From contig OZ240235.1 in assembly GCA_965197965.1 (NCBI GenBank), positions 1,317,820-1,381,819 of the forward strand: a DNA stretch of 64,000 nucleotides. The letters run 5' to 3'. Below, one piece after another: positions 7,328 to 8,942 of this stretch. This DNA comes from Dehalococcoidia bacterium (GTDB lineage Bacteria > Chloroflexota > Dehalococcoidia > Lucifugimonadales > QGNO01). Position numbers and translations under genes: made by a program. Each line of letters begins with the position of its first letter. Positions within the stretch are counted from its first letter, which is position 1. Below the pieces are notes generated by a model. That model was not told where the DNA came from and ran no database searches. It was given only the letters and a program-made list of their open reading frames with translations.

Positions 7328-7834
7328 TTAGATTCTCAGGCGACGGATGCACCGTTCGATGTCTTTCAACCCTTCATACACGTTTTGGAAATGACCTCTG
7401 ACTGCTGATGGCGCATCCACGGTTATGGTAGCGCCTTTAACGTAGGTGTGTGCCGCCCTGTTACGCTGGGCCTGGAGGGTTGAGAGACTAAACGTCATCT
7501 TGTCAAACTTGATCTGATCGAGCTTTGATTCCAATTCTTCGACCTTAATCAGGCCAAGAACCCTCATAAGCATATTCCGGAAGTTTGTGTCATAATCGAA
7601 GCCGTATGTCCTTCCAACTATAACGCTCTCCACATGTTTCCGATTGTTGGCAGTTGCCAAACGGCTCAAGGAACAGTCCCGTACAATGCTATCCATAGTT
7701 TCTTCTATCCAGCCGCACAACTCTATCAGGTACAACTTTGAATAATACAAAGGGTCTCTGGAGTTGCGGTGTCTACTGTTATAACGAGAATGCAGTTCAC
7801 GCAGGTTTCTGGCAATGGCAGTCTTGTTAACCAT
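7328..7834 (-). CDS. Small HEPN-like protein (Rx4H motif RNRAAH)
   Basis: 168-aa helical-looking ORF. RNRAAH is encoded at 7448-7465 in the C-terminal third. Its ATG overlaps the upstream DUF262 gene by 8 nt. Confidence 0.55.
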   Translation of the reverse strand: MVNKTAIARNLRELHSRYNSRHRNSRDPLYYSKLYLIELCGWIEETMDSIVRDCSLSRLATANNRKHVESVIVGRTYGFDYDTNFRNMLMRVLGLIKVEELESKLDQIKFDKMTFSLSTLQAQRNRAAHTYVKGATITVDAPSAVRGHFQNVYEGLKDIERCIRRLRI

Positions 7835-8942
7835 TTCCCTGGTCGGAGAATGCCCATTCAGCGGTTGACATCCGATCTAGTACTCTTTGCCTTCCGGAGA
7901 GGCCTTCCCTCAGCTTTGCCTCGGAGAGGGCCTCTGACCTCAGAAGTTGGTTATACATCTGGCGGACACGTTCACTGGGAAGCGTCTCCAGATGGTCTAG
8001 GTTCAGAGACACACCTACTAACGTTGCCTCCATGACTGTCAGAGATGTTCCGCGCCATTCACTAGGCTGTCCGTCTAGAATCGAGTCGTGAACAATGCTA
8101 ATTGTGCGGTTGAAGACCTCTCTATTGTCTTCCAAGAACTTTTCCCCCGTGCGACGGTGCTTCCCCATGTACCGGTTCAGAAACTTTACCAAGCTGCCTC
8201 TGTAATCGCGATAATTGTCGTGGAAGGCAAGGAGACGGAGTATCTGTTCCTGCCCAAAGTAACGGTTCCCTGCGCTTGAAGATCTTCCATTCAGCTTTAG
8301 CCAAGTTTGGTCGCCGTCAAGTTCATGCAGGAAGTCGTTAAAGGAACCCGAGTAGATGCAGTTCCGGATTTCTTGGTTGTTGAGTCTGACCGCGCCGGTA
8401 TTGAGACGGTGGAAAATGGTGAACAGATAATCCATGTGGCTAGATTTGGAGTAATCACAGCGAATAACTGTAATGGGTAAGGTTGCATTCTCTACACGAG
8501 TGTAGAATTTGTGCAAGGCTGGTTTGCTATTGCGGAAGCTGGGGACATACTGACCGGCAATCTTCTTGTCCACGTCATCAAGGCTGGAAAGACGCCAGTC
8601 ATCGCCGCGCAGAAAGCGGATGATACTCCACATACGCTGGAGTCCGTCTATAACCTGCCGTTTATCCGTCTTGTAATCCAAGCTAAAGCACATGCTCGGA
8701 ATCGGGAGCTGTTTAATCAGGGAATCTATGAAGCGAGTTTGTTTCTTGTCATCCCACACCACCTCTCTCTGAAAGTCCGGGCGAATATCAAGGGTACCTT
8801 CTTGGTACATTCGGAACAGATCTGCGCAAGACCTGAGTTCGTTGTACGCTATAAGGTCAGGTGGCGGAATATCTATGCTGTCGCTTTCTTGAAAGGTCAG
8901 TTCTTCGATGTTTTGAAGGCTTTTTTCAGTCATTGTTGCCAT
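7827..8942 (-). CDS. DUF262 (ParB/Srx-like, GmrSD N-terminal type) protein without a DUF1524 nuclease domain
   Basis: Motifs: PDFQREVVW, LPIPSMCF, VIDGLQRMWSI and FHRLNTGAVRLNNQEIRN. I prefer the start at 8942 (MATMTEKS, AGGAAG 6 nt upstream), because the track start at 9038 coincides with the -35 box of a consensus promoter. Confidence 0.75.
   Translation of the reverse strand: MATMTEKSLQNIEELTFQESDSIDIPPPDLIAYNELRSCADLFRMYQEGTLDIRPDFQREVVWDDKKQTRFIDSLIKQLPIPSMCFSLDYKTDKRQVIDGLQRMWSIIRFLRGDDWRLSSLDDVDKKIAGQYVPSFRNSKPALHKFYTRVENATLPITVIRCDYSKSSHMDYLFTIFHRLNTGAVRLNNQEIRNCIYSGSFNDFLHELDGDQTWLKLNGRSSSAGNRYFGQEQILRLLAFHDNYRDYRGSLVKFLNRYMGKHRRTGEKFLEDNREVFNRTISIVHDSILDGQPSEWRGTSLTVMEATLVGVSLNLDHLETLPSERVRQMYNQLLRSEALSEAKLREGLSGRQRVLDRMSTAEWAFSDQGNG

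Follow-up and report, generated by a model that had tools for sequence, protein, structure and literature searches.

A probable PD-T4-2 family defence locus, a DUF262 gene overlapping a HEPN-type gene, beside a tRNA-Arg gene in a Dehalococcoidia genome

The window considered in this study is a stretch of 64,000 nucleotides (nt) from the genome of a Dehalococcoidia bacterium (contig OZ240235.1), and the subject is a pair of overlapping genes on its minus strand, between positions 7328 and 8942. I will refer to the upstream gene, encoding a DUF262 protein, as gene A and to the downstream gene, encoding a small helical protein of the HEPN type, as gene B. The pair is very probably a member of the PD-T4-2 family of phage defence systems, because both proteins match the PADLOC models of that family over their full lengths, the two genes have the order and strand of the known system, and the histidine H129 of gene B is present. 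The locus is thus a real but ordinary new copy of a defence system already validated in Escherichia coli. An earlier note on this DNA, made from the letters alone, had proposed a compact two-gene cassette of a DUF262 protein and a HEPN-like protein with an Rx4H motif. That proposal is borne out by the full-length model matches, by the conservation of the pair in 79 of 80 loci and by the invariance of the arginine and histidine of the motif.

Match of the gene pair to PD-T4-2

The PADLOC model PD-T4-2_A matches the product of gene A with an E-value of 7.6e-150 and a score of 497 bits, over residues 4-366 (profile positions 4-362 of 363), and PD-T4-2_B matches the product of gene B with an E-value of 3.4e-57 and 191 bits, over residues 1-166 (profile positions 1-166 of 168). 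For comparison, the E. coli pair scores 538 (A) and 213 (B) bits on the same models, slightly more than the pair in the window. NCBIfam has no model for either protein.

The E. coli locus was found by way of a homologue from Erwinia, and 17 of the 5426 complete E. coli genomes carry a near-identical locus, for example at 3553868-3555503 of NZ_CP013025.1, where the two genes are annotated as "DUF262 domain-containing protein" and "HEPN domain-containing protein". Gene A is 52% identical to its E. coli counterpart over 361 residues (E-value 7e-133) and gene B 36% identical over 168 (E-value 1e-42), and the two pairs are colinear end to end. In the alignment, H129 of gene B falls on E. coli H127 and R124 on R122.

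PD-T4-2 of E. coli ECOR65 thus shares with the pair in the window a DUF262 gene (about 370 codons) followed by a HEPN gene (about 167 codons) in the same order and on the same strand, full-length matches to the PADLOC models, and the DGxQR and Rx4H motifs. They differ in the identities just given, in their hosts (an enterobacterium as against a Dehalococcoidia-type member of the Chloroflexota) and in their setting. The E. coli genes are separated by 4 nt and belong to a P4-like satellite that is located at ssrA and has an integrase, whereas the genes in the window overlap by 8 nt and constitute a bare insert of 1.86 kilobases (kb) at tRNA-Arg with no integrase.

The earlier note had described pairs of this kind as not characterised experimentally, a statement that does not hold for this family. 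According to Vassallo et al. (2022, PMC9519451), PD-T4-2 was recovered by functional selection, from a genomic library of E. coli ECOR65 selected for T4 survival, the cloned operon was validated in strain MG1655, and its deletion from ECOR65 restored plaquing by T4. The system appears as "DUF262, HEPN" in Table S1, the second gene as "No ID" in Table S2, and a strain "pCV1-PD-T4-2 (PD-T4-2B H127A)" in Table S6, and the text says that the mutagenized residues of four systems "were essential to phage protection". The phage challenge and the histidine mutation therefore appear to have been carried out already on the homologue, at 52% (A) and 36% (B) identity. Later reviews place PD-T4-2 among the DUF262 systems without DUF1524, "largely uncharacterized", and a 2026 preprint (10.64898/2026.02.22.705581) cites it merely as an example of a HEPN-containing system.

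Layout of the two genes

The positions given by the earlier note for both open reading frames (ORFs), for the 8-nt overlap and for the RNRAAH codons are all correct, and the DUF262 assignment of the larger protein stands as well. The features of the locus are as follows:

7827-8942, minus strand: gene A (PD-T4-2A-like); from the ORF and the choice of start, Pfam, PADLOC, AlphaFold2 and Foldseek
7328-7834, minus strand: gene B (PD-T4-2B-like), for a stand-alone, all-helical HEPN protein of the RiboL-PSP type, a predicted ribonuclease (RNase) effector; from the ORF, PADLOC, Pfam and AlphaFold2
8634-8648, minus strand: DGLQR codons, residues 99-103 of A (DGxQR motif); invariant in 44 homologues
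8766-8774, minus strand: FQR codons, residues 57-59 of A, near the N-terminus of the DUF262 region; from conservation
7448-7465, minus strand: RNRAAH codons, residues 124-129 of B, Rx4H HEPN motif; R124, A128 and H129 invariant
7691-7723, minus strand: ELCGWIEETMD codons, residues 38-48 of B, acidic patch in the long second helix; from invariant residues and the AlphaFold2 helix 27-56
9010-9038, minus strand: promoter-like site, TTGACT, 17-nt spacer, TATACT; consensus match at 10 of 12 positions
8948-8953, minus strand: AGGAAG, ribosome-binding-site-like, 6-11 nt upstream of the ATG of gene A; from inspection of the sequence
7139-7215, plus strand: tRNA-Arg(TCG); from ARAGORN, and Rfam tRNA at 67.7 bits
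7205-7229, no strand: proximal direct repeat of 25 nt, CGGGCGTGCCAGGCTAATCCTGTTT; last 11 nt of tRNA-Arg and 14 nt downstream
9064-9088, no strand: distal direct repeat, CGGGCGTGCCAGGCTAGCCCTGCTT, identical at 22 of 25 positions and bounding the low-GC insert of 1.86 kb on its far side; from comparison of the repeats

Gene A (8942..7827, 371 amino acids) is part of a longer minus-strand ORF, 9038..7827. The ATG at 8942 is its likely start, chosen because AGGAAG stands 6-11 nt upstream and because a protein of 371 amino acids fits the lengths of the homologues (362-371 amino acids). The stop codon TAA of gene A (7829-7827) and the ATG of gene B (7834-7832), which opens an ORF of 168 amino acids, overlap by 8 nt in ATGGTTAA. 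The promoter-like site falls within the insert, and its -10 hexamer ends 67 nt upstream of the start of gene A; it is a consensus match only, and rules of the sigma-70 type may not apply in the host phylum.

Rfam also gave a weak match to the DnaX ribosomal frameshifting element at 8912-8956 (minus strand), across the start of gene A. With 19.6 bits against a threshold of 35 bits and an E-value of 0.29, it is taken as chance.

Gene A, a DUF262 protein without a nuclease domain

Pfam finds PF03235 (GmrSD_N/DUF262) in residues 41-197 of gene A, with 87.6 bits against a cut-off of 33.2 bits and an E-value of 1.6e-24, and no further Pfam domain in the protein at E-values up to 1, the DUF1524/HNH nuclease domain being absent. 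Two other PADLOC models also match, NsnA (E-value 5.3e-53, residues 22-362) and "REase_II" (E-value 2.3e-12). In the AlphaFold2 model (mean predicted local distance difference test score, pLDDT, of 89.3) the C-terminal half, from about residue 200 to 365, is all-helical. When the model was compared to known structures by Foldseek, the best match was BrxU (7p9k, E-value 1.1e-4, probability 1.0), followed by SspE and the N-terminal domains of ParB proteins.

Among 44 homologues, residues D99, G100, L101, Q102 and R103 are invariant, as are V62 and W63, and at least 90% of the sequences keep F57, Q58 and R59. The DGxQR motif contacts the phosphates of the nucleotide and is required for defence in related proteins (NsnA, BrxU and HEC-06; PMC12065111, 10.1101/2024.01.29.577857). 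In NsnA the region equivalent to the helical C-terminus of gene A has been named the ParB-associated DNA-binding domain ("ParBDB"), and in GmrSD, BrxU and SspE the DUF262 domain serves as the sensor and nucleoside triphosphatase (NTPase) that activates a linked nuclease, DUF1524/HNH being the domain that cuts. Gene A, then, consists of an N-terminal ParB-like DUF262 NTPase domain and a helical C-terminal domain of the DNA-binding type, without a nuclease domain of its own.

Gene B, a probable HEPN protein

The occurrence of RNRAAH in gene B is not in itself telling. The protein is rich in arginine, and the Rx4-6H pattern is uninformative on its own because it occurs at least once in 82% of shuffled versions of the protein; the real protein has three instances. 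What makes the third instance, RNRAAH, meaningful is its conservation: R124, A128 and H129 never vary among 37 homologues with identities as low as 37%, while at the other two instances the residues vary freely in the same sequences. Also invariant in the 37 sequences are E38, C40, G41, W42, E44 and D48.

The AlphaFold2 model of gene B (mean pLDDT 90.8) has seven helices. The core of a HEPN domain consists of two helical hairpins, helices 2 and 3 being separated by an insert that varies (Anantharaman et al. [quoted passage not shown] The model was compared with this description by the order of its secondary structure, as distinct from three-dimensional packing. Helix 4-19 would be H1; 27-56, which carries E38, E44 and D48, would be H2; the helices in 62-103 would be the insert; 107-128, with R124 near its end, would be H3; and 142-165 would be H4. 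H129 opens the loop between 107-128 and 142-165, which puts the Rx4H motif at the end of the penultimate helix. The earlier reading of RNRAAH as a HEPN motif in the usual C-terminal position is upheld by this placement together with the invariance of R124 and H129.

By sequence, the HEPN family to which gene B probably belongs is RiboL-PSP-HEPN (PF18735), a model matched by 28 of the 37 relatives of gene B at E-values of 0.01 or better (best 9.6e-9). For the E. coli protein PD-T4-2B, Vassallo et al. (PMC9519451) give an HHpred probability of 97.8% for PF18735, with PF18737 (MAE_28990) second at 96.9%. Anantharaman et al. (2013, PMC3710099) describe the Ribo L-PSP-HEPN family as having a conserved Rx4-6H motif, as found in "operon with ParB" and as distantly related to AbiD and AbiF. 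The earlier note's statement that HEPN families accompany ParB-like DUF262 proteins was therefore correct in that the association is on record; the MAE_28990/MAE_18760-like families that it named for comparison come close but are not the family in question. On the combined evidence of sequence family and predicted topology, the HEPN fold of gene B is well supported.

[quoted passage not shown] (2013, PMC3710099). Among the Microcystis homologues of gene B encountered here (P0076, P0077, P0079 and P0094, with about 40% identity), which are among its more distant relatives, some carry at the C-terminus the RidA/L-PSP fusion that gives the family its name, for a total of 294 amino acids. Unfused or truncated versions share a 90% cluster with the fused ones, and the database names are "endoribonuclease" and "Rid family detoxifying hydrolase".

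Conservation and distribution of the pair

The genomes scanned for gene B comprised one genome for each of 185,579 species and yielded 123 loci, 80 of which were retrieved and inspected. A homologue of gene A lies directly upstream on the same strand in 79 of the 80, and the remaining locus ends with its contig 36 nt before the gene. The spacing between the two genes is mostly between -11 and +12 nt. The hosts belong to the Chloroflexota, Acidobacteriota, Cyanobacteriota, Alpha- and Gammaproteobacteria, Bacteroidota, Nitrospirota, Planctomycetota, Ignavibacteriota, Patescibacteria and others, so that at least 10 phyla hold the two genes together. The earlier note had regarded a pair that was not kept together in other genomes as evidence against the cassette, and the 79 genomes clearly show the opposite.

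An exhaustive search of 1.84 billion proteins with the profile of gene B gave 676 cluster representatives (at 50% identity) with E-values of 0.001 or better. The best 150 of the 676 are all clear members of the family and give no link to other HEPN families, and members among the matches listed are nearly all of about 165 amino acids. The family of gene B is widespread but rare. Most database copies are nameless, including one that is 100% identical to gene B (P0001). A tblastn search of gene B against phage and plasmid collections found no match at the sensitivity of that search.

In three further loci (L082, L083 and L085, two from Dehalococcoidia genomes and one from a metagenome contig) the pair, at about 6900-8510 of each, is a lone insert of two genes amongst metabolic and housekeeping genes, and no integrase, tRNA or other defence gene lies within 8 kb of it. 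The E. coli pair has a different setting (L081, NZ_CP013025.1 3547900-3561484), at the end of a P4-like satellite that is integrated next to ssrA and that carries genes for a primase-helicase, an Icd-like protein, ogr/delta, a polarity suppression protein and an integrase. The end of a P4-like satellite is a known cargo position for defence genes. I asked whether the cassette generally stands beside a tRNA gene and dismissed the idea, since a tRNA lies within 600 bp of the pair in only 3 of 79 loci.

The insert beside tRNA-Arg

The pair sits in a very small insert next to tRNA-Arg that was probably acquired horizontally. This insert has a GC content of 0.49, as compared to 0.58 for the window, and the GC content at third codon positions is 0.56-0.57 in its genes, as compared to 0.69-0.73 in the flanking genes. 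The two copies of the direct repeat (each 25 nt) lie 1859 nt apart, and the tRNA gene is the presumed target of integration because the proximal copy includes its 3' end. The suggestion that the pair is the cargo of a tRNA island is thus sustained by the tRNA end that abuts the insert, by the direct repeat and by the atypical GC content.

The list of ORFs shows only genes A and B within the 1.86 kb, with no integrase and no third gene, and a search for RNA antitoxins and other RNA elements found no tandem repeats in the insert and nothing above the Rfam thresholds except the tRNA. The neighbours of the insert are an Ldh_2 dehydrogenase gene and an amidohydrolase gene, the former following tRNA-Arg on the side of gene B, and the insert stands apart from other defence genes.

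Of the genomes retrieved, the closest is a metagenome-assembled genome of Dehalococcoidia (OZ220698.1, locus L001), which is syntenic to the window, about 88% of the nucleotides being identical over 12 kb. L001 has the same insert at the same tRNA, and each of the two corresponding positions holds a copy of a perfect 15-nt repeat. Between the two genomes, the synonymous divergence (dS) is 0.32 for gene A and 0.23 for gene B, similar to that of the flanking genes (0.39 and 0.36), and the insert was therefore already present in the common ancestor. The ratio of nonsynonymous to synonymous divergence (dN/dS) is 0.16 for gene A and 0.44 for gene B, as compared to 0.08-0.10 for the flanking genes. 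Since both values are below 1, both genes are under purifying selection, B less tightly than A.

Proposed mechanism

The explanation I favour is a defence operon of the PD-T4-2 type in which gene A is the sensor and gene B the RNase. Gene B would be translationally coupled to gene A. The product of gene A would sense infection by binding phage DNA or some feature of DNA, as do the DUF262 modules of GmrSD, BrxU and SspE, and the binding or hydrolysis of a nucleoside triphosphate at the DGxQR motif would shift its conformation, so as to release or activate the product of gene B. A dimer of the latter would then form a composite Rx4H active site from R124 and H129, with the helix bearing E38, E44 and D48 nearby, and would cleave RNA (tRNA, mRNA or rRNA), which would block multiplication of the phage, perhaps at the infected cell's expense. 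I infer the RNase activity, the sensor role of A, the activation of B by A and the outcome for the cell, abortive infection. Judged as a whole, from family membership through to mechanism, the explanation is likely to be right; as to the step from sensor to RNase, which draws on analogy, I lean towards the mechanism as described.

Several observations weigh against the explanation, beginning with the fold of gene B. The earlier note had looked to comparison of the 168-residue protein with HEPN families, and the result is divided: PF18735 is touched, and is matched by most of the relatives, but gene B itself scores 19.5 bits, under the Pfam cut-off of 28.4 bits, and a Foldseek comparison of its model to the PDB gave no match at an E-value of 0.001 or better. 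The HEPN entries 2hsb, 1jog and 7ae6 came out on top by probability (0.47, 0.44 and 0.28), with E-values above 1 and TM-scores of 0.36-0.47, and the profile of the gene B family found nothing amongst PDB sequences, even at E-values up to 10. Since no Foldseek match is significant, I do not claim the HEPN fold as structurally proven. The evidence of protection comes from the E. coli homologue only, and gene B is just 36% identical to the protein that was tested. The link between H127A and lost protection (PMC9519451), moreover, has to be made by combining an entry in a table of strains with a general sentence. The literature search found no RNase activity, RNA target, trigger, interaction of A with B, or structure for members of PD-T4-2. 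Finally, the selection that yielded the E. coli system used T4, a phage with hypermodified DNA, and there is no indication that phages of Dehalococcoidia carry such DNA.

Two further readings of the locus, to which I give a single judgement, are doubtful when taken together. According to one, the 1.86-kb unit, with its two genes, a promoter of its own and a direct repeat derived from the tRNA, is a minimal defence cassette that lacks an integrase of its own and is moved in trans by integrases encoded elsewhere, which would explain why the pair stands alone amongst housekeeping genes in unrelated phyla, yet in E. coli lies within a P4-like satellite. According to the other, which takes its start from the retention under selection of a PD-T4-2 member in Dehalococcoidia, the DUF262 protein recognises a general feature of invading DNA, rather than hypermodified DNA of the T-even type, and acts on a HEPN RNase by direct coupling, without an ATPase as transducer.

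Alternative explanations

The pair might instead be a toxin-antitoxin addiction module, in which gene B is an RNase toxin bound by gene A, the module stabilises an insert that has no integrase, and defence is secondary. The tight coupling of the overlapping genes is like that of many toxin-antitoxin pairs, HEPN proteins are the toxins of HEPN-MNT systems (10.64898/2026.02.22.705581), and an addictive function would suit both the persistence of the insert at the same site in two genomes that have diverged by about 12%, without an integrase, and the pair that stands alone amongst housekeeping genes in three other genomes. The partner of gene B, however, is neither an MNT protein nor a small antitoxin, but a DUF262 NTPase of 371 amino acids with an invariant nucleotide-binding motif, and the insert lacks tandem repeats like those of RNA antitoxins. 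Vassallo et al. (PMC9519451) report that the E. coli homologue defends against T4 in its native strain, and the toxin-antitoxin-like systems they list (PD-T4-5, PD-T4-7, PD-T4-9, PD-T4-10 and PD-lambda-2) do not include PD-T4-2. An addiction module as the main role of the pair is therefore improbable, though a toxin-antitoxin role may be compatible with defence rather than exclusive of it.

It is also quite improbable that the true effector is gene A, acting as a ParB-like DNase or NTPase in the manner of type IV restriction, with gene B a non-catalytic accessory that binds nucleotides or nucleic acids. Gene A is indeed the larger and more conserved of the two (by the dN/dS values above), it resembles BrxU and SspE and matches the "REase_II" model, and ParB-fold domains have been counted among the endoDNase domains that restriction-modification systems contain (Anantharaman et al. 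2013, PMC3710099). But gene A has no DUF1524/HNH, the domain by which GmrSD, BrxU and SspE cut, and the DUF262 domains of those proteins act as sensor and NTPase, not as nuclease. The invariant arginine and histidine of the Rx4H motif would be hard to explain in a non-catalytic protein, and in E. coli the H127A mutant of gene B was made, the mutagenized residues being reported (PMC9519451) as essential for protection.

That the insert is an inactive relic of an old integration, with no present function, would agree with the missing integrase, the decay of the flanking repeat to 22 of 25 positions and the isolation of the insert from other defence genes, but it is a very remote prospect given two intact ORFs of full family length, the retention of all residues invariant in the family, dN/dS values below 1 for both genes at a dS of about 0.23-0.32, and the presence of a promoter-like site and a ribosome-binding-site-like sequence.

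Comparison with other systems

The defence operon proposed here, with a DUF262 sensor and a HEPN effector, can be set beside several systems that share one or the other of its parts. GmrSD, BrxU and SspE resemble gene A in the DUF262 NTPase fold and the DGxQR motif, BrxU being the best structural match. They differ in being single polypeptides in which a DUF1524 HNH domain cuts or nicks DNA, whereas the effector in the window is a separate protein predicted to be of the RNase type. I considered calling the locus a type IV restriction system like GmrSD and rejected the label, since the C-terminal DUF1524 (HNH/His-Me) domain is absent.

Menshen (NsnABC) is closer in its sensor: both NsnA and gene A consist of a ParB-DUF262 region and a helical "ParBDB", and NsnA is a proposed sensor of phage DNA. 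The window, in contrast, has neither the ABC ATPase gene of NsnB nor the gene for the inPIN effector NsnC. The effector of the pair in the window would be the HEPN protein encoded right beside gene A, so that no ATPase would be needed as transducer. The label Menshen was likewise rejected, as only the HEPN gene of 168 codons follows gene A.

On the side of the effector, the RiboL-PSP-HEPN family (PF18735) has in common with gene B the Rx4-6H motif, the ParB partner in the operon and the matches of most relatives to its model; gene B departs from it by its score below the cut-off and by the absence of an L-PSP fusion. The MAE_28990 HEPN family (PF18737) also comprises small HEPN proteins encoded beside a ParB-like gene, but it is a separate Pfam family and has been described with a DNA methylase gene, of which there is none at the locus in the window. 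The label of a HEPN-MNT toxin-antitoxin system was rejected because the partner is a DUF262 protein, with no nucleotidyltransferase match in Pfam.

DARNA (PD-T7-3) has an Rx4H HEPN effector that a DNA cue activates during infection and that then cleaves tRNA (10.64898/2026.02.22.705581). It offers a plausible functional analogy for the sensing of DNA that drives a HEPN RNase. It differs in being a single protein whose own C-terminal domain binds single-stranded DNA, without a DUF262 partner, and no sequence relationship was found between DARNA and the pair in the window.

Significance

A standard defence-system finder would label the locus PD-T4-2, and the present analysis adds little beyond that annotation. 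It does document PD-T4-2 in Chloroflexota of the Dehalococcoidia type, of which few have been cultured and for which hardly any phages are known. PD-T4-2 is under-reported in genome annotations because the small HEPN gene is often unannotated or unnamed. What novelty remains lies in the biochemistry of the family as a whole (the trigger of the DUF262 protein, the activation of the HEPN protein, the RNA that is cut) and in the spread of a two-gene unit without an integrase. The residues that are invariant or highly conserved in the diverse alignment (FQR and DGLQR in A; ELCGWxE..D and Rx3AH in B) are ready targets for mutagenesis. A direct coupling of a DUF262 protein to a HEPN RNase with no ATPase transducer, if true, would be something not biochemically shown in any system.

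Other observations in the window and the related genome

At the distal edge of the insert the two related genomes differ in length. In L001 there are some 325 extra bases (4428-4752) between the amidohydrolase gene and the distal repeat, where the window has only 13 (9084-9096).

A second difference lies further from the pair. About 1 kb of the window (3371-4380, GC content 0.51-0.53), upstream of tRNA-His (4476-4552), has no counterpart in L001: position 3370 of the window aligns to 9396 of L001 and position 4381 to 9385. The segment holds two hydrophobic ORFs without a Pfam match, 3517..3810 (plus strand, 97 amino acids) and 3794..4333 (minus strand, 179 amino acids), and has the appearance of a second small insertion, specific to the strain, next to a tRNA gene. 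The ORF of a zinc alcohol dehydrogenase (4510-5589, plus strand) starts at a GTG inside the same tRNA-His gene, and since its ADH_N domain begins only at residue 55, the real start of the gene is further downstream.

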